A DNA stretch of 64,000 nt from an uncultured Endomicrobiia bacterium (GTDB lineage: Bacteria; Elusimicrobiota; Endomicrobiia; DTEH01). The translations under genes and the position numbers were made by a program. Numbering within the stretch: the stretch's first letter is position 1; the number at the start of each line of letters is the position of its first letter. The stretch covers positions 16,246-80,245 of the forward strand of contig CALFVX010000001.1 of NCBI GenBank assembly GCA_937928765.1. The letters are read 5' to 3'. Below the pieces are notes generated by a model, which did not search any database, was not told the origin of the DNA, and saw only the letters and a program-made list of their open reading frames with translations. Positions 25,842 through 64,000 of this stretch are shown in pieces.

Positions 25842-25934
25842 TTCCTTCACGCGATAAAGGCAAACCCTGAGTAATCAGGGGGCGCAAAGCTATAGGGTCC
25901 TTCAGATGAGGGGCAGCCAGCTGCCGAAGGAAGG
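25842..25934 (+). promoter_or_regulatory. Cyclic-di-GMP-I (GEMM) riboswitch in the 5' leader
   Basis: CACGCGAUAAAGGCAAACCCUGAGUAAUCAGGGGGCGCAAAGCUAUAGGGUCC...GGGGCAGCCAGCUGCC carries the GEMM-I hallmarks GGCAAACC and GGCGCAAAGCUAUAGGG with a GNRA-like tetraloop hairpin. Flanking P1 strands UCCUUC/GAAGGA overlap the SD, and the ATG is at 25938. Confidence 0.7.
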
Positions 25935-32900: not shown

Positions 32901-34766
32901 AGAAAGATATATCAAAAACAGCAGGAGTTTGATAAAGTTAAAGAAGAATTAAAAGAAAAAGAAAACAGATTGTTAGAAGAAATAAGAAATTTGAATGAAA
33001 AAAATACTACAGAAATTGATAGATTAAAACAACAGAAAGAAAATCTTATCAAAAAAATAGAAGAGTTAGAGGCCACAAGTAAACAAATAATTAATAAGTT
33101 AGACTCAGAAATATTACAGATTAAGACAGAAATTATATCTAAAAAAGAATCTTTTGAACAAGAATGGACATTAAAACAAACAGATTTTGAAGATTTAAAA
33201 AATTCTTTAAACATTGAAATAGAATCTTTAAAAGTTAAGTTAAAAGCTGAAGAAGATAATTATAAAATTAAACTTATTGAAAGAACACAAGCACTTGAGA
33301 ATCTTAAAAAAGAATATGAGAATAGATATCAGCAATTGTTAAATGAATTTAACAATAAAAAAAATGACTTTAATGTTAAAATAGAAAAATTAAATATTAA
33401 AATTGCAAATTTGGAAGAAGAATTGAGGTCAAAGCAAGATTATTATTCTGCTTTGCAAAAAGCTAAAAAAGAAGAGATAGATAATATAAAATCTGAACTT
33501 TCTAATTTGGAAATAAATACTAAAATTGAAGAAGAGAAAAGGCAAAAAGAACTATCTTTACAACAGCAGAAATTAAAAGAAGAATTGGAAATATTAAAAC
33601 AACAATTAGAAATACAACGTGATAAATATATTGAAGAATTAAATAATAAAATAGCTGAAGAACAAAAAATTACAAACGATTTTAGACAAAAAGAAAAAGA
33701 GCTATTAGAAAAAATGACTCAAATAGAGGAAGAATATAATACTAAGAAACAACAATATCAGGTAGAATTGTCAAAATTGCAGAAACAATTAAAATTATTA
33801 TCTGAACAAAATGAAAAATTAATATCTGAGTTGGATAAAGAAATAGAACAAAATAATACAAAGATTGCTTTAAAACAAATTGAATTTAATACAATGAGAC
33901 AAAAATTTGAATTTGAATTTAAGAAACTTGTTTTACAGTATCAACAACAGAAAGAAAAAATTATTAGAGATTTTAATAAAGAAAATGAAGAGTTGATAGA
34001 ATCAATAAAAACAAAAGAAAATGAAATTGATACTATAAAGATGAGATATAATATAAGACAAAAAAGTATAGATGAAGAAATTAAAAGAAGAAAAAATTTT
34101 ATAGTAAAAGAATTATCTGAGTTAGAAAATGAGATTAAAAATATGGAAAATGTCTATGATGTAAAAAGTAAAGATTATGAAATACAAATTAACAGGAAAA
34201 AAGATCTTATTTCAAAGTTGAAATCTGAATTAGATAAATTAATTTTTTGCTGGGATGAAGAAAAAGAAAAAATTCTTAAAGAGAAACAAGAAAATAAAAA
34301 ACAATTAGATGAAGAGATAAATATTTTAAAGCAGAAATTAGATGAATACAAAACATATATTAACGAACTCATAATGAAAATAGAATCAAAATTTAAATTA
34401 GAACAAGAATTACTTGATTTTAAAGATTTTGAATTTATCAAAGAAAAACATATAACTTATAATACATTAGATAAAATTTATAGCTTGGTTACAAAAGATA
34501 AAACTAAATCAGAAATTAAGTTCAATAAAAATTTATTAGATGAAGCATTGATGTATTTTGATAACAAACAGTATGATTTATCTATAAAAAAATTTTTAAT
34601 TTTATTAGAACAAGATAAAAACAACGAGTTGTTAAATCAATATTTAGCATTATGTTATTATAACATTAAAGATTTTAAAAAAGCTAAAGAATATGGATTA
34701 AAAGTTTTAGAAATAAATCCTAACAATGAAATTATTAAATCCTGGCTTAAAGAAATAATTGAATAA
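29958..34766 (+). CDS. Giant (1602 aa) coiled-coil protein with C-terminal TPR module
   Basis: Continuous E/K/L/Q/N heptad-rich sequence with no globular ATPase head, and a TPR-like terminus (QYLALCYYNIKDFKKAKEYGLKVLEINPNN). Strong AGGAGG RBS. Confidence 0.6.
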   Translation: MSIFDNIKNKLNKKEKTETDDKIEFSNKNDEYIQTDMNDPIMLKENILAQIRYLEQKIQQEREELINHLKSKEEEKVSLEMKLSNLEYKINSNRNNFEKEIEKLRADLEREFQRLNSEYNEEISSWEKMLNVKQNEIEQLRNKAVFEEAQNKMLLEQKQQEVKQEIERLQNNLKLLERQFEEEKSKFHRRIEEKDEEIFKLKSLIELKEKQLKVEEEKFLLSAKDLNAKRLQQISEMQKKFEEKIENYKKLYKAKDEEFFTVKYVLEQKHSEWEQQQKEMISNLEKSKKDYENRIGLLKEEIKSHQQEFEKLIQEKEEEIKKLKVEIMLKETQFNSLIEQKKKILLEEEQKIKQQLFDIEQKFTKEYENYNKLIQDKDQEIMHLQLIHQQQLSKLREDWDIKIKKLYEEKEELEKKIPELVSQLEEMKSKVASIMQEKKSYIAKIKKQNNEKLQELKEKLENTIKEMLEKNQKSEQEYKLKKEEFENKKNTLKIALQQKELELKELKEKLENEIEKEKNRVFLFEQEMRQKNLPLYEKVSLLKEEIKDTENKIQDILKAKDKEIQHINFKYEMLEKNLQQRYSNELESIQNKKILYEERILQLRNELSKIEQENNLKLQQYENEIKEIQNNINFLNEKTEVEKRKIIEENEKIKYQLNEEIKKLECRLNELIKEKEQILSSKQQEVDSLNNKILNLEKQKYTEIEMLNKDWQQEEEKLKFNIQQLEEIIKAKMEEYKTKVIQKQNELDLLKEKFAKEDSNTRKDVDNLKINLEQQNLPLVEKQKEILKAIDELQKEMQEKVIEYDKKINDLKIELDDKIKQFSDIEQKKKQEIKILREKLKSYLFTKEARIKELQTEYEERIKQIEKEKQDFILEHNKKIQELEMTKDGIVEKYNIERQKLLENIDNLTIQLNNFQEEMPEVISEKEKEKEELIVQLQQIQKEYAEKFENLKNMQITLQERLEKRINNYQKIINSLKEEQERKIYQKQQEFDKVKEELKEKENRLLEEIRNLNEKNTTEIDRLKQQKENLIKKIEELEATSKQIINKLDSEILQIKTEIISKKESFEQEWTLKQTDFEDLKNSLNIEIESLKVKLKAEEDNYKIKLIERTQALENLKKEYENRYQQLLNEFNNKKNDFNVKIEKLNIKIANLEEELRSKQDYYSALQKAKKEEIDNIKSELSNLEINTKIEEEKRQKELSLQQQKLKEELEILKQQLEIQRDKYIEELNNKIAEEQKITNDFRQKEKELLEKMTQIEEEYNTKKQQYQVELSKLQKQLKLLSEQNEKLISELDKEIEQNNTKIALKQIEFNTMRQKFEFEFKKLVLQYQQQKEKIIRDFNKENEELIESIKTKENEIDTIKMRYNIRQKSIDEEIKRRKNFIVKELSELENEIKNMENVYDVKSKDYEIQINRKKDLISKLKSELDKLIFCWDEEKEKILKEKQENKKQLDEEINILKQKLDEYKTYINELIMKIESKFKLEQELLDFKDFEFIKEKHITYNTLDKIYSLVTKDKTKSEIKFNKNLLDEALMYFDNKQYDLSIKKFLILLEQDKNNELLNQYLALCYYNIKDFKKAKEYGLKVLEINPNNEIIKSWLKEIIE

Positions 34767-34785
34767 TTAATAGGAGGACAAAATT

Positions 34786-37700
34786 ATGGCAGAAGAAAAA
34801 AACAAACAATTTGTTCCAAAACCACCATTGATTAATAAACCTGCTCAAGGGTTTATACAAAAACCGCCTTTGCCAAAAATTAATTTACCACAGTCACCAA
34901 AGATACAAGATAAATTACAACAAGGTATGGCTAATTCTGGAATATCATCTGCACCACAATTTTCAACTTCTATAGAACAACGTCTATGGGAAGCAGAACA
35001 AGCTAAAAGACAAATGGAAATTCAACTGCAGGAATTACAAAAAATGTTGTTGGAAGAAAGAGAAAAACTTATGATGCAGACTATAAAAACTAAAGAAGAA
35101 GAAAGTTTAGCTGCTAAAGTTGAAGAAAGTATTAAAGATATTCAAGAGAGGTTAAGAAGGGAGAAAAGAGAACAAGAACTTCAAGAAGAGAAAGAAAAGT
35201 TGTTGAAACAAATTAAAGAATTAGAGGAACGTCTAGTTAAAGAAAGAGAAACTTGGATTGAAACACTTAAAACACAACTTTCTCAAAGAGATTTACAAGA
35301 ACAACAAATAGAGCAACAGTATTTGTCTAAAATAAGAGATTTGGAATCAAGATGGCAAGAAGAAAAGTCAAAATTTCAATTTATTTTGAGGTCTAAAGAT
35401 GAAGAAATAAGTAAAATAAGAAATGAATATAAAATTTTAGAAGAAAAACTCAAAGCAGAAGTTGAAAAACAAATTTCCGAATACAAATTTGAAAAGAAAA
35501 ATTTTGAAACAGAAATTAAAAATTTAAAAACCATAATTGAAGATAAAGAAAAAGAAATAATTTCTTTAAAATCACAAATATCTACAATTATTTCAGAATC
35601 AAATATAAAAAAAGATAAAACAGATTTTGAATTAAAGAAAAGAGAAGAACATATTGCAAAATTACAAAGTATTTTAGATAATATGAAATCTGAAATTAAT
35701 GTTTTGAAAAAACAAAAAGAACAAAATGAAAAAGATTTTTTTATATTAAAAGCACAGATGGGTATAATACAAGCAAAACATAAAACAGAGTTAGAAAAAC
35801 TTTCTGAAAAAAAAGATTTAGAATTAAAATCAGTTCAACAATTAGTTGAGCAGTTAAAAAAGAATTTAGAAAACAAAAATGAGATAATTAAAAATTTAGA
35901 AGTGGAAATAGAAAACTATAAAAAAGAAAAAGAAAAATATGTCTCTGAAAAAGAGAATGAAATTAATATTTATAATGAAAAGCTAAATTCTATAGCCAGT
36001 TTATTGAAGAACAAGGAAGATTATATAAATAAACTTAACCAAGATTTTTCTAAATTAGTCCAAAATAAGGAAAATTTAGAAGAAAAATCTAAAATTTTGG
36101 AAGAAGAAAATAATAAACTTAAAGTTGAATTAGAGAAAAATCTACAGCAGAGAGATGCTGAATCTAAATTGTATCAACAACAAATTTTAGAACTACAGAA
36201 ACAAATTAATGATAAAATCAATTATGTTATGAAATTGGAATTAGAATTAGACAAAAATAGATCTTATTTATTACAGAAGGAACAAGAAAATAATAATCTT
36301 AGGTTAGAATTAAATAGCTTATTGCAAGAGATAGAGTTAAATAAACAAGTAGTTGATGAAATAAAAAAAGAGATATTACTTAAAGATGATCTATTAAGGA
36401 ATTTAAATTTTGAGTTAGAGAAGACAAAATCTAATTTAGAAAAGAAAATTTTAATATTAGAACAGAAAGAAAAAGAGTTAAAACAAATTTTAGAAAAAAA
36501 TGAATACTTAGAAAAAAGTTTAAAACATAAAGAAGAATTGGAAGGAAATTTAAAAGATTTAATAGATAAGATGAAAACAGAAATATCTAAGTTAGAAAAT
36601 GAAATAAAAGTTTCAAAAATAGAAAAGGAAAAGTTAGAAATAGAAGTTAAGAGATTTTTAGAACAATATGAACTAGAAAAAAATAATAATCAATTGCTTG
36701 TTTCTCAACTTCAGGAGAGTAAAGTTAATATAAACAAATTGGAGTTGCAATTAGAAAAATATAAATCAGAATTAGATTTGGCTAATCAAGTGTTGTCAAA
36801 CAGAGAGAAAGAAATAGATAACTTTAAAGAGATTAACATAAGTCTTAAGCAAGAATTGGTAATTAAAGATGAAAAAATTAATAAGATAGAGAATGAAAAT
36901 AAATTACTTATATCAGAATTAGAAAGAACAAAAAATGATTTTGAATTATATTTAAATGAATACAATAAAATTAAATTAGAGTATGAGAAATTAAAAAATA
37001 ATTTTAATGAAGAATTAAACAAAGTAATTTCTGAAAAGTTATTCCCTTATGAAGAACATATTAAAAATATAGAATTTGAAAATCAGAAGTTATTGCAAGA
37101 GCTACAAACTAAGAATACAAAAATAGAAGAATATATAGACTCTATTAAAAATTTAAGTCAGAAGCTAGATAATTTATATAAAGATTATGAAAAACTACAA
37201 CAAGAAAACCAGCAAAAAGAGCAAAATATTTTTTCTCTTAGAGATTTAATTTCAGATTTACAACAAGAAAAAGATAAATTTTTAAAAGAAATAAAAGATT
37301 ATGAATTAGAATTAATAAATAAAAATAATAAAGTTTACGAGTTATCAGAATTAGTTCAGCAGAAAGAAACTGAGATTAAGAAATTTTCTGAAGATATAGA
37401 TGTTTACACTAAGGAAATTAATAATTTAATGTCTACCATAGAAAGCCTCAATATTAAAATAAAAGAACTAGAAGAGAAAAGTAAAGAAGAGAAAGAAAGC
37501 TTGATTTCTGAAAAAAGAATTTTAGAACAAAAGGTAAAAGATCTAATTGAAACAAACGAAGAAAAAAAAGAAACAATTTCAAGAATAAATTCAGAATTAG
37601 ATAATATTAGGAAGAAATATGAACAAGAAAAATTGCAAATTGAAAAACAATATAATGAAAAATTGGAAATTTTGCAAAAAAATCATGAGACTACAATAGA

Positions 37701-37983
37701 TAAAATAGATATTGCTTGGAAAAGGATACATTCAAAATTATTAAGTGAATATCGTTTGTTGGAAAAAAAATTGAACCAAAAAGATGAAGAAATATCAAAA
37801 TTAAAATCAAGATTAGAAACAATAAGTTTAGCTAATGATATTAAGAACAATAAAATTAAAGTGAAAAATTCAAAAATTATAAGTGAAGAAGATGGTGTTA
37901 TTGATATTAACACAAGATATGATAAGAAAAATTTGTTTTTAAGAATTTGGTTGTGGTTAAATAAGCCAATATTGAAAATATAA
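34786..37983 (+). CDS. Giant (1065 aa) coiled-coil protein with Pro-rich N-terminus and hydrophobic C-terminal tail
   Basis: N-terminus PKPPLINKPAQGFIQKPPLPKINLPQSPK, a ~950-aa heptad coiled coil, and a C-terminal NLFLRIWLWLNKPILKI. GGAGG RBS located 19 bp after the upstream stop. Confidence 0.6.
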   Translation: MAEEKNKQFVPKPPLINKPAQGFIQKPPLPKINLPQSPKIQDKLQQGMANSGISSAPQFSTSIEQRLWEAEQAKRQMEIQLQELQKMLLEEREKLMMQTIKTKEEESLAAKVEESIKDIQERLRREKREQELQEEKEKLLKQIKELEERLVKERETWIETLKTQLSQRDLQEQQIEQQYLSKIRDLESRWQEEKSKFQFILRSKDEEISKIRNEYKILEEKLKAEVEKQISEYKFEKKNFETEIKNLKTIIEDKEKEIISLKSQISTIISESNIKKDKTDFELKKREEHIAKLQSILDNMKSEINVLKKQKEQNEKDFFILKAQMGIIQAKHKTELEKLSEKKDLELKSVQQLVEQLKKNLENKNEIIKNLEVEIENYKKEKEKYVSEKENEINIYNEKLNSIASLLKNKEDYINKLNQDFSKLVQNKENLEEKSKILEEENNKLKVELEKNLQQRDAESKLYQQQILELQKQINDKINYVMKLELELDKNRSYLLQKEQENNNLRLELNSLLQEIELNKQVVDEIKKEILLKDDLLRNLNFELEKTKSNLEKKILILEQKEKELKQILEKNEYLEKSLKHKEELEGNLKDLIDKMKTEISKLENEIKVSKIEKEKLEIEVKRFLEQYELEKNNNQLLVSQLQESKVNINKLELQLEKYKSELDLANQVLSNREKEIDNFKEINISLKQELVIKDEKINKIENENKLLISELERTKNDFELYLNEYNKIKLEYEKLKNNFNEELNKVISEKLFPYEEHIKNIEFENQKLLQELQTKNTKIEEYIDSIKNLSQKLDNLYKDYEKLQQENQQKEQNIFSLRDLISDLQQEKDKFLKEIKDYELELINKNNKVYELSELVQQKETEIKKFSEDIDVYTKEINNLMSTIESLNIKIKELEEKSKEEKESLISEKRILEQKVKDLIETNEEKKETISRINSELDNIRKKYEQEKLQIEKQYNEKLEILQKNHETTIDKIDIAWKRIHSKLLSEYRLLEKKLNQKDEEISKLKSRLETISLANDIKNNKIKVKNSKIISEEDGVIDINTRYDKKNLFLRIWLWLNKPILKI

Positions 37984-42274: not shown

Positions 42275-42294
42275 TTATTCTTATAAAAAATTTT

Positions 42295-42379
42295 GCCGCG
42301 AGAGGGAGTCGAACCCTCATCCCGTTAAACGGGACTGGTTTTTGAGACCAGCGCGTATGCCAATTCCGCCATCGCGGCA
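42295..42379 (-). tRNA. tRNA-Leu (anticodon CAA), class II with long variable arm
   Basis: Reverse complement GCCGCGA-UG-GCGGAAUUGGCAUACGCGC-UGGUCUCAAAAACCAG-UCCCGUUUAACGGGA-UGAGGGUUCGACUCCCUC-UCGCGGCA folds as a cloverleaf. The 7-bp acceptor, anticodon loop CUCAAAA and T-loop UUCGA are all present. Confidence 0.85.
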
Positions 42380-55430: not shown

Positions 55431-55898
55431 ATGAAAAAATTATTAATTATTTCAGTTTTCACAGGTTTTTTCATAGCATTATTTATAACAGAAAGTAATT
55501 ATTTATCTCACCAAAATTTTGAATTGATAAATTCCAATTTTGTTTCTTTAAATCTTTTTGATACAAGAGATTTTTCTAATACCCAGTATCATCAAAACAA
55601 TCTTTTGAAACAATTGTTTGTAGAAAAAATTTATCTAAATTTTGTATTAGAAGAGCTTGAGAGTTTTAAATCTATAACTGTTTTATTACTTAAAAAATTT
55701 GTTAATTTTTGGTTCATTACTGAAACATTCAAAATTTTGTTAGAAAAAGTAGTTTATTTGTTTACAGAGATAAGAAAACTTTTTATTTTTAACTGCATAG
55801 TTTTGTTTAATTTAGTACTTCCTATTTTTATTTTCCTTTTCTATTTTAAAACACAACATAAAACTTTTAAACTACCTAATATAGTTTTAAGATGTTGA
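55431..55898 (+). CDS. Hypothetical membrane protein
   Basis: 155-aa ORF with N- and C-terminal hydrophobic segments, sitting downstream of the strong promoter. No recognisable family. Confidence 0.3.
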   Translation: MKKLLIISVFTGFFIALFITESNYLSHQNFELINSNFVSLNLFDTRDFSNTQYHQNNLLKQLFVEKIYLNFVLEELESFKSITVLLLKKFVNFWFITETFKILLEKVVYLFTEIRKLFIFNCIVLFNLVLPIFIFLFYFKTQHKTFKLPNIVLRC

Positions 55899-56270
55899 TT
55901 TAAACCTTTATACCCCCTGCTAGGATAATTTTGGCAGGAAAAAATTCATATTCATAACAGGTCCCGTACTACATATATTTTTGCGGGACTAGTTATGGGT
56001 ATAAAGGGAAAAAATCAACATCGAAATAAAAAATAAGACAGAGAAAGTTCAAATAAGTTAAAAAGAAAAAAAGCACTACTATTTAAAATGCCATATATAA
56101 AGTTTTTTTGTAAAGAGTAAAAAAAATAATTGGATTAAAAAATAAGTGAAATGAAAGTTAACCAGCAAAATACAAAATTTAACTATAAGGTAAAAAAGCT
56201 TTTTTATTTTAAATTTTGGTTTAAAAAATTAATATTTTGCTCTATTTCCATTTTCTTAAAGGAATAAAAA

Positions 56271-56438
56271 ATGAATAGCATTACTGAAAAAGAAAAGCAG
56301 GCATTAAAAGAGTTAGTTGAAGCTCTTAAGAAACTTTATGGTAACAATTTAGTTCGTGTGATACTTTATGGTTCAAAAGCGTGGATAGATAAAAGAGAAT
56401 GATTGATAAAGGAGGTATGGATAAAAATGAGTAGATTG
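56271..56438 (+). pseudogene. Truncated 5' duplicate of the MNT-type nucleotidyltransferase antitoxin gene (56874..57203)
   Basis: A ~90-nt stretch (about 56292-56381) is about 98% identical to 56895-56984. It encodes MNSITEKEKQALKELVEALKKLYGNNLVRVILYGSKA and then diverges into an early stop, losing the GSxxxGD...DIDI catalytic motif. Confidence 0.55.
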
Positions 56439-56621
56439 GTTATAAAACCAGAATTTGTGGTTGACAGGAAAGGGAACAAAAAAGCAGTTATTATTAGTTA
56501 CAAAGAATATCAGGAGTTGTTAGAAGATCTTGAAGATTTGAAAGACATTGCAGCAAGAGAGAAAGAGCAATCACGACTTTTTTCTGACTATCACAAGGAA
56601 CGGATATCAAAGAGAAAATGA
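56403..56621 (+). CDS. Type II antitoxin, Phd/YefM (or RelB)-like
   Basis: 72 aa, ...KKAVIISYKEYQELLEDLEDLKDIAAREKE, overlapping the downstream RelE/ParE toxin by 4 bp. Confidence 0.6.
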   Translation: MIKEVWIKMSRLVIKPEFVVDRKGNKKAVIISYKEYQELLEDLEDLKDIAAREKEQSRLFSDYHKERISKRK

Positions 56622-56869
56622 AATATATTACAAAGATAAAACGTTCAGCAGAAAAAGAGTTAGACAAAATTCCTTTAAAAGTTTATAGACAGATTGCAAA
56701 ACATATATTTGCGTTAGGGACTAATCCGCGACCTTCGGGGATAAAAAAACTAAAAGAAGGAATTTATCGGATACGAGTTGGAGATTATCGGATAGTATAT
56801 TCTATAGATGATACAACTAAAATAGTAGAAATTATAAAAGTTAAGCACAGGAAAGAAGTTTATAGATAA
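56618..56869 (+). CDS. Type II toxin, RelE/ParE family
   Basis: 83 aa, ...GIKKLKEGIYRIRVGDYRIVYSIDDTTKIVEIIKVKHRKE, the typical RelE/ParE C-terminus. Confidence 0.7.
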   Translation: MKYITKIKRSAEKELDKIPLKVYRQIAKHIFALGTNPRPSGIKKLKEGIYRIRVGDYRIVYSIDDTTKIVEIIKVKHRKEVYR

Positions 56870-56873
56870 TAAA

Positions 56874-57203
56874 ATGGACCACTTGACAGAGAAAGAAAAG
56901 CAGGCATTAAAAGAGTTAATTGAAGCTCTTAAGAAACTTTATGGTAACAATTTAGTTCGTGTTATACTTTATGGTTCAAAAGCGCGTGGTGATGCTACAA
57001 AAGATTCAGATATTGATATTATGGTCGTGTTGAAAAATTATGAAGATTGGAATGAAGAATTTGATAAAGTATTTGATATTGTCTATCCAATAAATTATGA
57101 GTACAACATGCTTATATCTGTGGTTATAAAAAAAGAGGAAGAATACCTGACTAAAAAAACTCCCTTGCTATTAAATGTTAGAAAGGAAGGAGTAGAGATA
57201 TGA
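56874..57203 (+). CDS. Minimal nucleotidyltransferase (MNT) antitoxin of HEPN/MNT module
   Basis: LYGSKARGDATKDSDIDIMVV matches the Pol-beta NTase GS...D.D motif. Confidence 0.75.
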   Translation: MDHLTEKEKQALKELIEALKKLYGNNLVRVILYGSKARGDATKDSDIDIMVVLKNYEDWNEEFDKVFDIVYPINYEYNMLISVVIKKEEEYLTKKTPLLLNVRKEGVEI

Positions 57204-57490
57204 AAAACGAAATTAGTGCACTTATTAAAAAAGCAGAAGCAATACTTCTTACTAAAGATTTATCTTACTCAACGCACAAAGGTGTAATTGCTGGTTTTAG
57301 TGAACATTTCATCAAAAATGGGACATTTGATAAGAAATTTGGAAGAGAACTTAACAAAGTTTACGAATTAAGAGTGAATGGCGATTATGAAGCACAAGAT
57401 AAAATATCAAAACAGCAAGCTGAGACATATTTGAACTTAGCAAAAGAATTTCTACAAGCAGCAAAGAAATATTTGGAGAAGTTTAAATAA
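57200..57490 (+). CDS. HEPN domain protein (toxin partner of MNT)
   Basis: 96 aa, helical, overlapping the MNT gene by 4 bp. It is the canonical MNT-HEPN arrangement. Confidence 0.6.
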   Translation: MKNEISALIKKAEAILLTKDLSYSTHKGVIAGFSEHFIKNGTFDKKFGRELNKVYELRVNGDYEAQDKISKQQAETYLNLAKEFLQAAKKYLEKFK

Positions 57491-58161
57491 TGAAAAAATA
57501 TCTTAGTCAACATTTTTTTGTGTTTGTGTTAATTTTTATTCCAATTTTTGTTTTCTGTGATGAAAGAGAGGATATAAGAAAGTATGTTTCTTCTTTAAAA
57601 TCTTCTGATGCTAAGGTACGTCTTGCTGCGATAGAGTCGTTAAGTAGGATACAAAACAATCCTGAAGTTGTAGATATTTTAGTTGATGCGTTCAAACAAG
57701 AGCAAGATAATTATCTTAAGATCCAAATTTTAGAAGTGCTTGCTATCCAAAAGTCAACTAAATCGTTGGAATGTATTTATTCTGCATTAGATGATACTAA
57801 TCCTTATGTTCGTCAGCAGGCAGTGATATCACTTGGGTATTATAATGACGAAGAGAAAGTGGCGAATATACTTTCAGATATTTTTGATAAAGAAGAGAAA
57901 GAGTTTGTGAAACTGACAATTGTTAATACAGTTGGTAATATGACTAACAGAGTTGCGATTCCTGTATTATCAAAAGCGTTAAATGAGAAAAATAGTAAAC
58001 AACTGCGTTTTCTTGCAATAGAAAGGCTACACAATATAGGCAATACAGAGGCACTAATAGAGTTAGAAAAATACAAAAATGATAAAGATTTGGAAATAAA
58101 GCAAAGGATAAACAAGATAATATCAGAGAAAAGGAAGAAAATTGAAATAAAGAAAAAATGA
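57490..58161 (+). CDS. HEAT/PBS-lyase-type repeat protein with signal peptide (lipoprotein-like Cys)
   Basis: Repeats of the form VRLAAIESLSRIQN...PEVVDILVDAFKQE / VRQQAVISLGYYND. Confidence 0.6.
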   Translation: MKKYLSQHFFVFVLIFIPIFVFCDEREDIRKYVSSLKSSDAKVRLAAIESLSRIQNNPEVVDILVDAFKQEQDNYLKIQILEVLAIQKSTKSLECIYSALDDTNPYVRQQAVISLGYYNDEEKVANILSDIFDKEEKEFVKLTIVNTVGNMTNRVAIPVLSKALNEKNSKQLRFLAIERLHNIGNTEALIELEKYKNDKDLEIKQRINKIISEKRKKIEIKKK

Positions 58162-61100
58162 GTAAAACCAAACAATATAAAAATTTTTGGCTGGAAATTA
58201 TATATGTTACTATTTTTTTGGTTTTGATTGTTAGTAATTTATATGCTACAAAGTCAAATTCGCATGTTGCGTTTAATCTTACTCAAACTGCACCTATGGT
58301 TAAGGAGTGGTTAGCTTCTACTGGTGAGTGGTCGGATTTTCAACTTGCTCAGGAAGTTGTTGGCACAGAGGGAATAATATATGCTGCTAAACTTATCTCT
58401 GCGCCATCTGATGGTCCAAGACCTAATGAAAAAATACTGATTGTAATGCTATTTGACAATGTTGGGAATGTAGGTAGAATTTTAGCTCAGGTTTATGATG
58501 GCACATCTTGGGGTAATCCACAGATATTACAAACATTTATTGATACTGGTCTTATAGCACCTCTATACAGATTTCCGTTTGATGCTGCTTATGAAACGGC
58601 AACAAGTACTGCAATAGTAGTTTTTACAAATGGCGATAATAATGATACAACAACAACTGCATGGGCAACCTGGGATGGAACTCAATGGATATTAAGAGGC
58701 GATATGCCTGTTCAGACAAATACAAACGCCCAATATGTCTACTGGATAAGGTTAGAAGCAAACCCGAGAGCAGGTTCTCGTGAGATATTTGCTGTTTTTG
58801 CTGATGCAAGTCTTGAGTTATATGCCGTGAGGTGGAATGGAACAAGCTGGGGTAATTCTCAAAACATAACTAACGGCACTCTAATGGGGAATGCTTTGGA
58901 AAATATTGCTTCTTACAGAAGTTTTGATATAGCATTTTCGTCAAGAACCAGTACTTTTTATATATTCGGTGCTATTGGTAGGGTATTTGAAGTTGCATAT
59001 TGGACTGGTAGTGCTTGGGCTGCTGGAACTGATAGTGTAGTTGTAGATGCTCATAATTCAACTTGGCGCTGGTGTATTGCAAAGCCAGATATTTCAGGTA
59101 ATTCAGATAGAATAGCAGTTTTTGCCCAACAGGGGACTATAAGAGCAGCATTAGGGATATTTAATGGTGGCGGTGCAGGCTCATGGTCTAATACATGGAA
59201 CACTAATAATTTTCCTAACGCTAACATTTCTGCTGGATATAGGCCAACTATAGGACTTGAATGGTTAGCAGATGGTTCACAAATAGTTCTTTCTTATTCT
59301 CAATCGGGTATTACTAATCCAAGATATAGAATACTTACATTGCCTAATACCTTAGGTGCTGAGGGTAGTGCGAACAATGTAGGCGGTTCACAGATATATC
59401 AGGTAAAAGTTTTCAGGGAGAGTGGGTCAAACAATATTATGCTTTTTACTGTTAACGACCTTGGAAGACTTACTTCGCAGCGATGGAATGGTTCTTACTG
59501 GGAGCCGGTTCAGATGGTGAATCCGTATGGAAGTTATGCTACTAATCAATTTTTTGATTTTAACGATAATATGGTTGCTTATGGTGGTAACGATCCAAGA
59601 CCTGCTTACAGGAATTGGGCTGCAGATGTTCAAACCTGGTCAGGGACAAATTCTTTTGCTATTGATATAGGTGCAAGTCCAAGGTTTGTAAGGTTTAAGG
59701 CAAGTCCAAAGAGAAATGAGAAGATACTTGTTACACAGGATAATCTTGGTCAGATAATTTCTCAGATATGGAATGGGACTACATTTGTATCAACTCAAAC
59801 ATTGACAACAGCAATAGATGCTGTAGGTGGTAAAGATTTCCGTAGAGGGTTTGATTTTGATTTTGAAAGGAAAACTGGCGATGCGTTGATAGTTTATTCA
59901 AACAATACAACAGTTCCGCAGTATAGGGTTAAAGCAGATGGTTCACTTACCTGGAGTGACCCTGTTGGTATATCAGGTTGGCCAGGGACAGGAACACCTT
60001 TATGGATAAGGTTAGAAGCAAACCCGAATCCTGATTCTGAAGAGATGATACTTGTTGTAATGGATACGAATTATGATTTATTTGCTGCTGTATGGAATGG
60101 CACTGGATGGACAAATATAATTACTCTTACGCTTAATATCGCCGGGTTAATTGAATATACACAGAACTTTGATGTTGCGTATACTTATGAACCATACTAT
60201 ATGGGTTTAGTTGTATGGGGAGATAATGCTAACCAACAGACTCCTTATTATAGAATATGGTATTCAACTTCACAAACCTGGGGTGGGACAAGAGTAGGAC
60301 TTGACCTTGACCCTAATACTAATACTGATTTAGCAAGATGGATGAAACTTAGTTCTGACAGGTCAGAGATAGGAATTTCATATGGTGGTAGGATAGCGTT
60401 GGCAGTTGCAGACGGTGATGCAGACCTTACTGCTATGATATTTTACGGCAATACACAAAGTTGGGGTGATCAATTAGTAAATGCAGAAACAGAGTTACTT
60501 GACCCGGATGCAAGCTCAGTTTATGACTTTCGAACTTTTGATATCTGTTGGGAAGGTGCTGGTGGTGATTTAATTCTTGCATATAGTGATGGTAATACCA
60601 ACTTAAGACACAGGGTTTTTAGGACTGGTGTTGGCTGGGGTCCTGAGGTTGTTAACGATACTGCTGGAAATGCTGCTATACGGCATGTGACTTTGGTTGC
60701 TGACCCTAATGACCCGAATACTAATGAACTTTTTGCAGTTGTTATAAATGCTAACGGTCAGCTCAGGATTTATCACTGGTCAAATCCTGCTGCACAAAAC
60801 GGTACTTTTGATACTCCTTTCCAGCCGAAGATATATAATGGTTTTTATTGGCAAAATACTTTCCGAACAGAACCGTTTGCTTTATGTTATGACAGAGATT
60901 ACACTCCACCTGTGGCTTATTTATCATTTCCGCAAGATGGTGGACATTACAAATATCTTAATGTAATAAGTGGTACTGCGACAGATGGTAGTGGTTATAA
61001 TGTATCAGAACTTAAAAGGGTTCAAATAGCTATACAGGATTTAACTTATCCATCAACTTATTACAGGTTAGGTGTAGGTTGGGTAGCAAGTGGTTCATTA

Positions 61101-64000
61101 ATCTGGAATGACGCTACTGGTGTAAACCCGTGGGATACAAGTGGTTGGGGCAATATTGATAGTATATGGACAAGTGGTCGTAGGTATAGAATATATGTTC
61201 GTGCGATAGACTGGGCTGATAATAGGCAGACAAGTTTAACTACTGCAGAGATAGTTTATGATAAGACAAATCCGACTGGTGCGGTTTTATATCCAAAAGA
61301 TATTTCAACACCGTCAAATCAAAGTTATATAAAAATTGATTATACTCAACCGTTGATTACAATCAGTGGGACTGCTTTTGATACTGACCCTGGTAGGATA
61401 CAGAAAGCAGTTATAAGATTACAATGTGCTGGTTCGCCTACAAAACAAAACCAGTGGTGGAACTGGACAACTGAACAATGGCAGACGGATTATTCAGATA
61501 AAGAAATTACACCGCCAGGTAATCAGTTCTCGTGGAACTGGTCAGTGACAATTACTACAAGAGCGTTTTCCGAAGACCAGACAACTTATTATATTTCAGT
61601 TCAAGTTCAGGATAAAGCAGGCAACTGGCAACCAATAGCATCAACTAATACTTTTGTGATAGACAACACTCCGCCACAAAGTGTAGTTATCTGGCCTGAT
61701 GTTAACTCAGGCCAGTTTTCGCCAATAACACTAATTTCTGGAACTTGTAGTGATACTTTTAATGTATTTTCTGCTTCTATTGCTATAAGGAAGAGCGATT
61801 CTTATTGGGACGGCAGCGGGTTTAATTCTCCAACACCTGTATGGTTTAATGTTAATGGAACTTTGAATTGGACATATCCAGCAGTTGAAAATTTGGATAA
61901 TACTGAATATAGGATTTACACTCGTGCGATGGACTATGCTGGGAATGTAGAATCAGTGAACTTAAATGTTGCAAAACGGAATTATATTATTGATGTTACA
62001 TCGCCAACTACAGTTGTTACTGTGCCACAGAACAACCAATGGTATAGTTCATTAACTCAAATTCAAGGAACTGCGAGGGATGGTCCTGAAGTTGGCTCTA
62101 TTCAAAAACTTAACTTTGTACAGATAGCAATAAGACGACTTTCAGATGGTATGTATTGGAACTGGCCTGGTTGGAGTGCAGCAACTCCGCAATGGGATTA
62201 TCAATCCTCACCACCAACACCTATAAGTGTTTCTTATACTAACTGGACAAAGAATTTTAGTGATTCCAACTGGGGTACAGTTTCAGGTTCTTCGTTTACT
62301 GTTTGGGCAAAAGCAACTGATTTAACTAAACCTACAAACTTAGTTGAACAGGTAAACCCGCCAACAGGTGGGAACACTTTCTTTTGGGATGTAACACCAC
62401 CTACTTCAACTATTACATATCCACAACATTTAGGTGTTGCAGGTACTAACCCTGTATTTTACGGTACTTACTATGATGCTCATTCAGGTATAGGACCTGC
62501 AGTAGGTGGAACAGTCAAGATAAAACTCTATGCAAAGACAGGTGTGAATGCAGGAAAGTGGTATTATGCAGGTGACTGGAGGTCAACACCGCCAACTAAC
62601 GATGACCTACCTTCAGCAGAGATTTGGCCTTCAAGTTGGAGTTGGCAAGCACCAACACTTGAAAGTGGTGCTGAATATCTTTTGGTTTCAATAGCAAAAG
62701 ATAGAGCAATTCCTGGAAATTATCAAACAGAGTTTATAGTAGGTATATCTTCAAATTCTTTCACTTGTGATAACACTGAACCTGACACAAATATAACTGT
62801 TCCTGCAACAAGTTTTAGAAATCAACTTACACAAATACAAGGTAATGCTTCTGATGCACCGCAAGCATCACAGGTTAACCGTATAGAGATAGAGATTGTT
62901 TATCCGGTTGAAGAGGATGGTACAGGTTCACCAACACATGCGTGGAATGGTACTAACTGGGTGGCTTATACAGGTTCATTTGCTACATATGTTGTAGTTA
63001 TGGGCGGGTATCCAACCTGGACATATAATGTACCTTCAAATATAAACTGGCAACAAGGAATAAGGTATAGAATAACTGCTCGTGCAGTTGATAATGTTGG
63101 TAATGTTGAGACATCGCTTACTATTGGTGATGAAATACGAGTTTTTAAATATGATGTATCTTTTCCTACTTCAACACCTACACGTTGCACAGAAGATGGT
63201 CAAATTAAGTATTTTTCTAATGAGACATATTTCCATAACTTAACCAAGATAGAAGGGACTGCACAGGATTATCCTGAAGCACCATATGGTGAACTTGCTG
63301 CAGTAGGTGTGTATATAGAAAAGATAGACAATCCTGGCGCTGGATACTTCTGGGACCAGGCAAACGGTAGATGGCGAAACGATTTAGGTCCTATAAGAAA
63401 CAATGCTACTTTAACTGCTTATGGTTGGGAGTTTGATACTTCAGGTATTAACTGGGCTACGGGACAAAATGGTGGTTATGGACCTTATTGGTCAAACGGT
63501 GGTACTTTCAGGATAAGGTCGGAAGCAAGAGATTCTGCAGTACCTGGTAATGCACCACCGCCTGCAGGAAACCGTGAGAAAGGTGGTGTATATGCAAACC
63601 TAAACTATGTAGATATAGTTTTTGATCCAAGGCCACCTGATTCTAAAATAACTAATATTCCAGCAAATGGTTATACTAACAGTTTACCAACAATTTCAGG
63701 GACTGCTTCTGATATAGATACTGCTGTTAGTTATACTCCTGTAATTGATAGTGTTAGGATAAACATATTTAAACAAAGTCCGCCACCTGCAAAAACTTAT
63801 AATGGTTCTACTTGGGAGGACGGTGAACTTTTAGATGATGCTTACTGGTTAAGTTGTAATTTTGTAGGTTATTCCTCAGGGACATGGACATATCCATCAC
63901 CTGCTTGGGAACATGGTGCAACTTATAGGATTATAAGTAAAGCAAAAGATAAAGCAAAAAATTATCAATTAGTTTTAGATACAAGAACATTTATTTTTGA
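58158..64000 (+). CDS. Giant secreted repeat protein (>1940 aa; 3' end beyond window), with an N-terminal beta-propeller-like region and C-terminal tandem Ig-like ~100-aa repeats
   Basis: I translated the frame from the ATG at 58158, which overlaps the HEAT gene stop (ATGA), to the window end and saw no in-frame stop. It starts with signal/TM MSKTKQYKNFWLEIIYVTIFLVLIVSNLYA. Internal repeats include WIRLEANP (twice, 25-nt DNA identity) and a recurring TxPT..V..P........I.GTA.D....V..V.I.I module. It is absent from the ORF track because it lacks a stop codon within the window. Confidence 0.65.
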   Translation, partial: MSKTKQYKNFWLEIIYVTIFLVLIVSNLYATKSNSHVAFNLTQTAPMVKEWLASTGEWSDFQLAQEVVGTEGIIYAAKLISAPSDGPRPNEKILIVMLFDNVGNVGRILAQVYDGTSWGNPQILQTFIDTGLIAPLYRFPFDAAYETATSTAIVVFTNGDNNDTTTTAWATWDGTQWILRGDMPVQTNTNAQYVYWIRLEANPRAGSREIFAVFADASLELYAVRWNGTSWGNSQNITNGTLMGNALENIASYRSFDIAFSSRTSTFYIFGAIGRVFEVAYWTGSAWAAGTDSVVVDAHNSTWRWCIAKPDISGNSDRIAVFAQQGTIRAALGIFNGGGAGSWSNTWNTNNFPNANISAGYRPTIGLEWLADGSQIVLSYSQSGITNPRYRILTLPNTLGAEGSANNVGGSQIYQVKVFRESGSNNIMLFTVNDLGRLTSQRWNGSYWEPVQMVNPYGSYATNQFFDFNDNMVAYGGNDPRPAYRNWAADVQTWSGTNSFAIDIGASPRFVRFKASPKRNEKILVTQDNLGQIISQIWNGTTFVSTQTLTTAIDAVGGKDFRRGFDFDFERKTGDALIVYSNNTTVPQYRVKADGSLTWSDPVGISGWPGTGTPLWIRLEANPNPDSEEMILVVMDTNYDLFAAVWNGTGWTNIITLTLNIAGLIEYTQNFDVAYTYEPYYMGLVVWGDNANQQTPYYRIWYSTSQTWGGTRVGLDLDPNTNTDLARWMKLSSDRSEIGISYGGRIALAVADGDADLTAMIFYGNTQSWGDQLVNAETELLDPDASSVYDFRTFDICWEGAGGDLILAYSDGNTNLRHRVFRTGVGWGPEVVNDTAGNAAIRHVTLVADPNDPNTNELFAVVINANGQLRIYHWSNPAAQNGTFDTPFQPKIYNGFYWQNTFRTEPFALCYDRDYTPPVAYLSFPQDGGHYKYLNVISGTATDGSGYNVSELKRVQIAIQDLTYPSTYYRLGVGWVASGSLIWNDATGVNPWDTSGWGNIDSIWTSGRRYRIYVRAIDWADNRQTSLTTAEIVYDKTNPTGAVLYPKDISTPSNQSYIKIDYTQPLITISGTAFDTDPGRIQKAVIRLQCAGSPTKQNQWWNWTTEQWQTDYSDKEITPPGNQFSWNWSVTITTRAFSEDQTTYYISVQVQDKAGNWQPIASTNTFVIDNTPPQSVVIWPDVNSGQFSPITLISGTCSDTFNVFSASIAIRKSDSYWDGSGFNSPTPVWFNVNGTLNWTYPAVENLDNTEYRIYTRAMDYAGNVESVNLNVAKRNYIIDVTSPTTVVTVPQNNQWYSSLTQIQGTARDGPEVGSIQKLNFVQIAIRRLSDGMYWNWPGWSAATPQWDYQSSPPTPISVSYTNWTKNFSDSNWGTVSGSSFTVWAKATDLTKPTNLVEQVNPPTGGNTFFWDVTPPTSTITYPQHLGVAGTNPVFYGTYYDAHSGIGPAVGGTVKIKLYAKTGVNAGKWYYAGDWRSTPPTNDDLPSAEIWPSSWSWQAPTLESGAEYLLVSIAKDRAIPGNYQTEFIVGISSNSFTCDNTEPDTNITVPATSFRNQLTQIQGNASDAPQASQVNRIEIEIVYPVEEDGTGSPTHAWNGTNWVAYTGSFATYVVVMGGYPTWTYNVPSNINWQQGIRYRITARAVDNVGNVETSLTIGDEIRVFKYDVSFPTSTPTRCTEDGQIKYFSNETYFHNLTKIEGTAQDYPEAPYGELAAVGVYIEKIDNPGAGYFWDQANGRWRNDLGPIRNNATLTAYGWEFDTSGINWATGQNGGYGPYWSNGGTFRIRSEARDSAVPGNAPPPAGNREKGGVYANLNYVDIVFDPRPPDSKITNIPANGYTNSLPTISGTASDIDTAVSYTPVIDSVRINIFKQSPPPAKTYNGSTWEDGELLDDAYWLSCNFVGYSSGTWTYPSPAWEHGATYRIISKAKDKAKNYQLVLDTRTFIF

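Follow-up and report, generated by a model that had tools for sequence, protein, structure and literature searches.

The last 7.7 kb of a 64,000-nucleotide stretch of DNA from an uncultured bacterium of the Endomicrobiia (Elusimicrobiota; contig CALFVX010000001.1, the whole stretch being referred to below as the window) stand out from the very AT-rich sequence that precedes them, and an original prediction had proposed that they were acquired horizontally or represented a strongly divergent expression class. It now seems very likely that this apparent island is made of two parts of different kinds, both lying in an AT-rich Endomicrobiia chromosome: a giant gene for a putative surface protein, from 58158 onwards, which is native to its position, and a small toxin-antitoxin (TA) islet at 56271-57490, which varies from strain to strain. 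The candidate for a horizontal island is in this way mostly explained away.

The higher G+C content (GC) at the end of the window is borne out by both the 1-kb and the 200-nt profiles. In 1-kb bins GC lies between 0.18 and 0.305 across 1-56 kb, is 0.284 and 0.301 in the two bins of 56-58 kb, reaches 0.356 at 58-59 kb and remains at 0.379-0.404 from 59 to 64 kb. The GC of coding sequence follows the same course, rising from 0.24 in the 40 genes upstream of 56 kb to about 0.30 at 56.4-58.2 kb and to 0.36-0.40 from 58.2 kb to the end of the window. At 200-nt resolution two steps are visible, a minor one at about 56.4 kb, where the TA genes begin, and a major one at about 58.2 kb, at the ATG (58158) of an open reading frame (ORF) of at least 1947 codons that is still open at the final base of the window. 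A start of the island at about 56.3 kb, as proposed, is therefore right for the minor step only, the main change being at 58158. The compositional background was taken from 40 non-overlapping long ORFs upstream of 56 kb, in which GC at third codon positions (GC3) is 0.109-0.185 and deviates from expectation by z values of -2.1 to +2.0; in the six genes from 56.4 kb onwards it is 0.18-0.31, so codon usage does indeed differ. The proposed contrast in amino acids is also present, with background proteins rich in K (12.1%), I (11.1%), L (10.5%) and E (9.3%) and the protein of the giant ORF containing T at 9.8%, G at 8.4%, A at 7.7%, W at 4.1% and K at 2.5%. When tetranucleotide frequencies were correlated with the rest of the window, 58158-64000 gave r = 0.645 as against 0.76-0.89 for chunks of background, and was flagged as atypical. 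The giant genes at the syntenic position in the relatives L008 and L030 were flagged likewise (L-numbers denote contigs of relatives or strains, of which L001-L005 and L029 are metagenome contigs from several samples that exact-sequence matching showed to carry the region itself; the source contig is 160,640 nt long).

Most of the rise in GC can be traced to the protein. The GC expected of each gene was calculated by encoding its protein with synonymous codons at the frequencies found in the 40 background genes. The giant ORF has an observed GC of 0.389 and an expected GC of 0.362, against 0.242 for background coding sequence, so that about 82% of its rise follows from the protein sequence alone. 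In three relatives the rise where the giant gene begins (about 0.27 to 0.40-0.46 in L008, 0.26 to 0.38 in L007) is fully accounted for by amino-acid composition, with observed and expected values of 0.388 and 0.398 in L028, 0.399 and 0.388 in L008, and 0.371 and 0.391 in L007. The GC of the giant gene exceeds that of its flanks by 0.135 in the window, 0.113 in L028, 0.120 in L030 and 0.122 in L032, while in GC-rich relatives the difference is -0.03 (L027) and +0.02 (L035). Across 12 loci the composition of the giant protein is near-invariant (T about 10%, G about 8%, W about 4%, K about 3%) and GC at the first two codon positions of its gene is 0.435-0.52, compared with 0.30-0.57 in the flanks. 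It would seem that the protein, rich in T, G, A, S, N, W and P and poor in K, E and I, keeps its composition whatever the GC of the genome; because that composition is held almost constant, codon positions 1 and 2 stay near 45-50% GC. In a genome with a coding GC of 24% this would give a peak of +0.13-0.15, and in relatives of 60% GC none.

The surroundings of the giant gene are also those of a resident locus. The genes upstream are ordinary chromosomal ones, encoding fumarase, bactofilin, a BatA-like operon, TPR glycosyltransferases, M16 peptidases, and enzymes of lysine, arginine and tryptophan biosynthesis and of hydrogenase maturation. HypF is 84% identical to that of one Endomicrobiia metagenome-assembled genome (MAG; L006, from JBKBRH01, the closest relative, with flanks 84-89% identical to those of the window) and 59-60% identical to those of two Endomicrobiia/Elusimicrobia MAGs (L007, L008). 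The last gene of background composition encodes p155 (55431-55898, plus strand; GC3 0.155 against 0.140 expected), a small hydrophobic protein that matches no Pfam family above threshold. Homologues of p155 are found between DUF1015 and the HEAT-repeat gene in L007, L008, L028, L030 and L032; a further one, on L006, follows DUF1015 where the contig ends. In the first five of these contigs the complete order HypF-DUF1015-p155-HEAT-giant is conserved (p155 being p152 in L028), and pairs of HEAT and giant genes are present in L027, L031, L033, L042 and L045 as well. The HEAT gene lies directly upstream of the giant gene in L007, L008, L028, L030-L033, L042 and L045, and in L027 a 72-aa ORF intervenes. 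L030 and L032 were found by a metagenome scan with an alignment of the conserved distal region of the giant protein, where a scan with a single giant protein had found no relatives. Taken with the other elements of the explanation given here, it is very likely that the HEAT-giant pair is natively and vertically inherited at a conserved position after HypF-DUF1015-p155.

Best-hit taxonomy agrees with synteny, in that the giant and TA genes match Elusimicrobiota-type genomes, as do the flanks, and a discordance that would mark foreign DNA was seen for neither. The best matches of the giant protein are P0001, from an Elusimicrobiota MAG (50% identity), and P0002, encoded on L028 (49%). The latter contig (GCA_039803085.1, JBDRXU010000029.1) is labelled 'candidate division WOR-3 bacterium', and this label, together with the deviation of GC, GC3 and tetranucleotide signature from the rest of the window and the presence of TA genes and a duplication scar at the left boundary, is what could be cited for an origin of the whole of 56.3-64 kb in a distant donor of different composition. 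Such an origin is very unlikely. L028 shares the HypF-DUF1015-p152-HEAT-giant synteny typical of Endomicrobiia, with flanks 57-60% identical to those of the window and a DUF1015 gene split in two, and its label or binning may be wrong; the position is conserved in five related contigs, so that synteny already contradicts an import of this kind; all AT-rich relatives show the compositional anomaly, most of which stems from the amino acids; and the closest homologues of the TA genes are in relatives. Of the usual signs of an island, atypical composition is plainly there (GC 0.36-0.40 against 0.24, GC3 z up to 10.9, tetranucleotide r = 0.645), but absence from the same position in relatives is seen for the 1.2-kb TA cluster alone and not for the HEAT-giant pair. 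There is no integrase, transposase or tRNA at the boundary of the block, the sole tRNA gene of the window being at 42294-42378, and the only repeat at the boundary is a 99-nt duplicate of the 5' end of an MNT gene that brackets RelB-ParE alone.

Horizontal acquisition thus holds for the TA cluster, whose slot is without TA genes in five relatives and varies between strains, and is not supported for the giant ORF on grounds of synteny, best hits and composition. The original prediction had itself named what would speak against it, a GC and GC3 shift for which the amino acids of a native surface protein account in full, with best hits that agree with those of the flanks. For the giant ORF, 5.8 of the 7.7 kb, this is largely what is seen; it is not wholly so, as a shift in synonymous GC3 and codon usage persists, in this lineage only.

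The TA islet begins after an intergenic spacer (55899-56270, GC 0.21-0.28) that forms the left edge of the shifted block, and all of its genes are on the plus strand. At 56271-56402, directly upstream of RelB-ParE, is a 43-codon ORF without Pfam match, a truncated 5' copy of the MNT (minimal nucleotidyltransferase) gene that follows further on. Positions 56283-56381 match 56886-56984 at 95 of 99 bases, confirming the duplication scar that had been noticed. A RelB/Phd-type antitoxin gene follows at 56427-56621, with an alternative TTG start at 56403, and scores 31.2 bits for the RelB-like family of Pfam (cut-off 27) and 30.4 bits for PhdYeFM_antitox (cut-off 29.8). Its GC3 is 0.312 against 0.152 expected and it is 62% identical to a homologue on L033. 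The adjoining gene for a ParE/RelE-superfamily toxin (56618-56869) overlaps it by 4 nt, matches ParE_toxin with 52.4 bits (cut-off 23) and is 69% identical to its L033 homologue. The two are thus an adjacent pair of small antitoxin and toxin genes with both domains above curated thresholds, as in type II systems. The second pair appears to be of type VII, an MNT gene adjoining a HEPN gene, again with both domains above threshold. The MNT protein (56874-57203; NTP_transf_2, 48.6 bits, cut-off 21) is a MntA-like antitoxin in which the motif GSKARGDATKDSDID is readable; it is 63% identical to a homologue on L032 and matches the PADLOC candidate defence system PDC-S09 over its full length (E = 7.6e-35). 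The HepT-like HEPN toxin (57200-57490; Pfam HEPN, 35 bits, cut-off 22), whose gene overlaps that of MNT by 4 nt, carries an in-frame internal deletion of 31 residues. The TA genes that had been noticed are in this way confirmed by Pfam.

The window HEPN protein covers only positions 39-116 of the Pfam profile, while an intact allele of 127 aa on L029 (619-1002) covers 2-116 and scores 73 bits. The 93 missing nucleotides fall exactly between two 8-nt direct repeats, AGCAGAAG, both of which are kept in the intact allele, and the loss looks like a slippage deletion. Given the deletion of 31 internal residues the toxin is probably defective; by eye, the canonical Rx4-6H motif was not found in the window HEPN, the corresponding stretch reading RVNGDY. 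From RelB to the giant ORF the genes overlap or sit no more than 4 nt apart, and this arrangement makes co-transcription plausible, while a scan of 55.3-58.4 kb for promoter and terminator consensus sequences found no site above chance.

The islet would have been inserted in line between p155 and HEAT, as RelB/ParE flanked by the duplicated MNT 5' fragment and then MNT/HEPN. The gap between the p155 and HEAT genes is 1592 nt in the window and 173-460 nt, without TA genes, in L007, L008, L028, L030 and L032. Strains of one population differ in this slot: HicA, MNT and the intact HEPN occupy it in L029, and unrelated sequence with a divergent HEPN remnant in L002, although HEAT and the giant gene are 97.4-99.5% identical among these strains. 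No relatives of the TA proteins reach 90% identity (each is a singleton at 90% clustering). Their nearest homologues lie in the same neighbourhood in relatives, at 62-69% identity for RelB and ParE (L033) and 50-63% for MNT and HEPN (L032, where they sit between HypF and DUF1015), and for this reason the genes appear to circulate within the clade. The best database match for MNT-HEPN is an Elusimicrobiota MAG protein; this came from a concatenated query of the four TA proteins that gave five matches and missed the self-matches, and is not a fair best-hit test. The four TA genes are accessory DNA, variable between strains and decaying.

Comparable arrangements occur at other copies of the locus. 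TA modules lie close to HEAT-giant in the window, L029, L033 and L032, and on the 365-kb contig L045 (3852-9290 and 20228-22361) three MNT-HEPN pairs, with DUF6922 and AbiEii-like genes, stand directly upstream of the HEAT-giant pair. On L033 (189-831) the truncated 5' copy that lies immediately before RelB-ParE comes from the HEAT gene (83% identical over about 190 nt), with the full HEAT gene downstream after a 165-aa ORF; in the window the full MNT gene comes directly after ParE. Nucleotide homology between the RelB-ParE cassettes of the window and L033 (71.5%) is confined to the two coding regions. The two cases suggest a recurring mechanism of insertion or recombination that duplicates the 5' end of the target gene.

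Between the islet and the giant ORF is the gene for a HEAT-repeat protein of 223 aa (57490-58161, plus strand; Pfam HEAT_2, 83 bits) with an N-terminal hydrophobic segment resembling a signal sequence. The gene starts on the last nucleotide of the HEPN stop codon and ends in an ATGA that it shares with the start codon of the giant ORF. Its GC3 is 0.247 against 0.140 expected, and a homology search with the protein returned nothing beyond its own cluster. The giant ORF, also on the plus strand, opens with a predicted hydrophobic anchor or signal segment, MSKTKQYKNFWLEIIYVTIFLVLIVSNLYA (58158-58244; hydrophobicity judged by eye). Residues 30-905 (58245-60872) form a tandem β-propeller, a variable 'head' here called type A, in which four-stranded blades are repeated in a ring. 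The repeating unit of about 95 aa is marked by the motifs W-x-G-x-x-W (P-x-YR-x-W-[ND]-G-x-x-W) and FD-x-AYE and has no Pfam model; it was found in 861 representative protein clusters, with up to 26 copies in proteins of 6,700-7,900 aa. Residues 906-1947 (60873-64000) form a stalk, open at the window end, of β-sandwich repeats of about 110-125 aa that resemble immunoglobulin (Ig) and fibronectin type III (FN3) domains and bear a D-x-T-x-P mark. A structure model of two stalk repeats (predicted local distance difference test, pLDDT, 72) matched tandem FN3/Ig pairs, among them those of LAR, titin, contactins, RbmA and intimin D00-D0, with E of about 1e-5 to 1e-4, and a tandem Ig/FN3-like fold is predicted with moderate confidence. 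In the Pfam Big family only Big_13 was matched by the window giant, at 17.5 bits against a cut-off of 27, and the homologue P0002 gave faint matches only. Sequence searches of head and stalk against the PDB returned nothing meaningful.

The giant ORF reaches at least 2256 aa in L001 and at least 2448 aa in L029, and in relatives it extends to at least 5876, 5789 and 7112 aa while still open, and beyond 3300 aa across an assembly gap in L028. As the ORFs of relatives are so much longer, the window appears to hold the first third or less of the gene. On L045 a second HEAT gene, followed by a gene of 14,254 aa, lies downstream of the first HEAT-giant pair. What had looked like a separate gene of high GC3 after the giant gene of L028 came from reading a stretch of N in the wrong frame, and the giant ORF in fact goes on. 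From its repeats, the folds and the N-terminal hydrophobic segment the giant protein would be expected to form a fibre of the envelope or surface, of adhesin type.

Head and stalk differ in how they are shared with relatives. The N-terminal 900-1350 residues are 59-65% identical to L027, which has a GC of 62% and other upstream genes, and to the AT-rich L042. Identity to the syntenic L007 and L028 is only 26-31% (78% between these two), and similarity to L008 and L030-L033 is undetectable; there are at least three head types. The stalk (residues 901-2256) is 73% identical to that of L028, and along it identity climbs from 48% to 88-89% for L028 and reaches about 80% for L008 distally, compared with 57-62% for HypF and DUF1015 of the same genome pairs. 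A recent transfer of the stalk from the L028 lineage, which the difference between 73% and the 60% of HypF might suggest, was rejected. Where the residues of two proteins agree, identical codons exceed expectation by 0.04-0.12 in the stalk and by 0.03-0.12 in HypF and DUF1015 of the same pair, so that synonymous sites are as randomised as in the flanks; the window and its close relative L006, used as a positive control, gave 0.53-0.63. As its synonymous sites are saturated, the conserved stalk appears to be anciently diverged and under strong constraint. The distal core from about residue 1850 (63705 onwards in the window, 7367-9013 in L029), of which TPWQDGKTYEINVKCRDKAGNWQ is an example, is 66-89% identical in AT-rich relatives, whose HypF is about 60% identical.

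Differences between strains were also mapped. Among the window and four strain contigs there are 64 single-nucleotide polymorphisms (SNPs) in the HEAT and giant genes, which are clustered and fall on the three codon positions in the ratio 20:24:19. Three 500-nt bins of the head hold 17, 13 and 16, and 11 lie within 100 nt at 60231-60332; the comparison of the giant gene with L001, L002 and L029 refers to 59342-62916. Such clustering, with an even spread over codon positions, points to diversifying selection or recombination in the head.

Amino-acid composition leaves a remainder at synonymous sites. Extended with L001 to 2256 codons, the giant ORF has a GC3 of 0.245 where 0.171 is expected (z = 10.9 under a binomial model), and the z values of the small genes are 3.8 for the antitoxin, 1.3 for the toxin, 3.0 for MNT, 2.1 for HEPN and 4.8 for HEAT. 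Codons ending in G (AAG, GAG, CAG, AGG, CCG, GCG and TCG) and in C (AAC, GAC and TTC) are both raised in the block. Over the 147 codons before the window ends GC3 is down to 0.143; a recombination breakpoint was considered here and rejected, since the next 300 codons, on L001, are at 0.28-0.33.

Several observations weigh against the explanation favoured here. The GC3 excess lies outside the amino-acid explanation and is uniform over the head, the stalk, HEAT and the TA genes. It is not found consistently in the giant genes of L028, where it is slightly negative throughout, of L008, where it is near zero with sporadic peaks, or of L007, so that the shift is specific to this lineage. The codon choices of the block are closer, by 0.04-0.07 log units per codon, to those of less AT-extreme relatives than to those of the genes of the window; for control genes the best fit was to the window background, a model in which they had themselves been included. 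The distribution of head types conflicts with the relationships of the flanks, which implies that lateral exchange within the phylum has at some time affected this locus. Neither the window nor any recovered contig reaches the right-hand end of the giant gene or of the shifted block.

The onset of the excess is sharp, between p155 (GC3 0.155) and the antitoxin (0.312), and close to it three assemblies break: L006 stops at about 55920 and L004 at 56346, and L001 begins at 56159. An assembly chimera, in which two related populations were joined at the shared MNT repeat and the GC3 step is an artefact, is nevertheless hardly credible. L004, which carries the flanks through p155, and L001, which carries the block, share 188 identical bases, of which 124 are unique and the rest carry variants specific to the truncated MNT copy. 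L004 ends within 43 nt that the two MNT copies have exactly in common, as would be expected of a k-mer assembler, and the adjacency of p155, HEAT and giant matches that in relatives. The contig breaks were also considered as evidence of structural variation and set aside, the end of L004 being explained by the MNT repeat; real variation between strains is shown by L002 and L029.

Some of the preferred codons of the block are those typical of highly expressed genes in AT-rich bacteria (GGT 57% against 43% in the background, ACT 49% against 36%, AAC 36% against 18%, GAC 24% against 13%, TTC 16% against 6% and CGT 14% against 9%). With the close spacing of the genes from RelB onwards, which makes a common transcript plausible, this would be consistent with a divergent expression class, consisting of an abundant envelope protein and its co-transcribed neighbours under translational selection. 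This second alternative of the original prediction appears improbable. AAG, GAG, CAG, AGG, CCG, GCG and TCG rise too, indicating a general lift of GC3 and not adaptation to tRNAs; the TA genes, of which high expression is not expected, share the shift; the giant genes of relatives show no comparable excess; and the window holds no ribosomal or other highly expressed reference genes for comparison. Because the excess is uniform over unrelated genes in one contiguous block, codon selection acting on a single gene is disfavoured.

Replacement by an allele from a relative and biased gene conversion are the leading candidates for the cause of the excess. In the first case the locus would be native but its TA-HEAT-giant allele, or at least the 5' 8.7 kb of it, would have been imported by homologous recombination from a less AT-extreme member of the Endomicrobiia with a GC3 of about 0.25, of which the excess would be the unameliorated footprint. 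This is tentatively put forward as a supplement to native inheritance of the locus, which it does not contradict. It would account for the uniformity of the excess over unrelated genes and its sharp onset, and for the 0.04-0.07 log units per codon by which the block is closer to relatives in codon usage, and the GC3 of relatives, 0.18-0.22 in flanks and 0.22-0.25 in giant genes, is in the range needed. The incongruence of head type and flanks agrees with it, and the clustered strain SNPs and the variable TA slot indicate that the locus recombines. Against it, neither a donor nor a closer allele was found, the best giant match being 50% identical and HEAT having no relatives outside its cluster, and the saturation of synonymous sites against every available relative makes the timing unreadable. 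Furthermore the GC3 of the giant gene is 0.22-0.25 in eight AT-rich loci whose flanks range from 0.15 (the window) to 0.22, and a floor specific to the gene predicts the same near-constant value. Because giant GC3 is constant across lineages, the excess is favoured as a property of the locus.

Recombining bacterial genes tend to have a higher GC3, according to a published hypothesis. A recombination hot spot in which GC-biased gene conversion, or another regional process, raises G and C at synonymous sites locally would require no single import. The TA slot differs between strains and the SNPs of the head are clustered and evenly spread over codon positions; changes from weak to strong base pairs (29) are balanced by those in the opposite direction (25) in spite of the strong AT bias of the genome; and codons ending in G and in C are both raised, all of which would fit. 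L028, L008 and L007 have no excess at the same locus, however, and the SNPs were polarised by majority rule among five sequences, in a small sample of 64 sites, so that this process is rather unlikely as the explanation. In sum, the modest GC3 excess is real and lineage-specific, block replacement, biased gene conversion and a gene-specific floor all being candidates for its cause, and we infer that it reflects the recombination history of the block within the clade and not a foreign origin.

A broader scheme, offered as a somewhat doubtful conjecture, would make the HEAT-giant locus a long-lived hot spot of exchange. Lineages about 40 percentage points apart in GC would exchange the propeller heads of a protein exceeding 5,800 aa, while the distal core is kept more conserved than housekeeping genes; the TA modules, found at the 5' edge of the locus in the window, L029, L033, L032 and L045, would pile up there as hitch-hikers or as stabilisers of a long and costly gene; and the GC3 excess would be the footprint of the latest exchange.

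Some features elsewhere in the window may also be mentioned. The compositional extreme opposite to the giant ORF is found at 29958-37983, where two adjacent ORFs of 1602 and 1065 aa, without Pfam match, have an E+K content of about 34-36%, a GC at second codon positions of 0.12-0.15 and an AT skew of 0.3-0.4. A c-di-GMP-I-GGC riboswitch at 25850-25929 on the plus strand (66 bits, above the gathering score) lies directly upstream of a 153-aa ORF, which is followed by genes for a TPR protein, a FliG-domain/TPR protein and two very long coiled-coil-like proteins. The plus strand carries nearly all protein genes of the window, whose GC skew is positive along its whole length; the tRNA gene at 42294-42378 is on the minus strand.

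The case shows how, in a very AT-rich genome, a native gene of extreme amino-acid composition can mimic a foreign island, and how the effect of amino acids can be separated from a true signal at synonymous sites. It also brings to light a previously undescribed module of two genes, encoding a HEAT protein and a giant protein of propeller and Ig-like repeats, that is conserved across Elusimicrobiota. In this module a variable head is joined to an unusually conserved core and a TA islet recurs at the upstream edge, and the repeat family of the head, for which Pfam has no model, is spread over hundreds of metagenomic protein clusters.

Giant repeat-rich adhesins include SiiE, LapA and MpIBP, of the RTX type, and Bap-like proteins. 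The giant protein resembles these in being encoded by one ORF of great length (above 5,800 aa and up to 14,254 aa in relatives) with an N-terminal hydrophobic segment, in its long Ig/FN3-like array combined with a module of ligand-binding type, here the β-propeller, and in containing little K and E and much T, G, S and N. It differs in that the propeller is N-terminal, that a HEAT-repeat gene is an obligate upstream partner and that no Pfam adhesin domain was found above threshold. RTX repeats or a recognised sorting signal were not seen in the sequenced part of the giant protein, whose C-terminus lies beyond all contigs, nor type I secretion genes among the genes annotated up to 12 kb upstream. 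A further comparison is offered by the giant genes of Omnitrophota and other candidate phyla, in which HEAT repeats are described inside the giant protein (West-Roberts et al., bioRxiv 10.1101/2023.11.21.568195). Both sets are metagenome-derived giant ORFs of uncultivated bacteria with a largely extracellular repeat architecture in which HEAT repeats are involved, but here the HEAT repeats form a separate protein of 223 aa, and no shared domains were established. Elusimicrobia genomes were downloaded for the analysis in that study, but its passages considered here contain no description of the giant family of the window.

The second TA pair resembles type VII HEPN/MNT systems (HepT/MntA; PMC7641770, PMC11586414) in having MNT upstream of HEPN with a 4-nt overlap and a GS-x(n)-DxD motif. 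It departs from them in that the predicted HEPN toxin of the window is short of 31 internal residues compared with the L029 allele. The first pair shares with type II RelB/ParE modules what can be read from its sequence, a putative two-gene operon of antitoxin and toxin with a 4-nt overlap; unlike these, the pairs of the window and of L033 are flanked upstream by a truncated 5' copy of a downstream gene. Lastly, native genes of extreme amino-acid composition give atypical GC and tetranucleotide signatures and are known as false positives in the detection of genomic islands. The giant gene would be one of these, yet the block of the window differs from a plain false positive of composition in that it keeps a real shift at synonymous sites after correction for amino acids.

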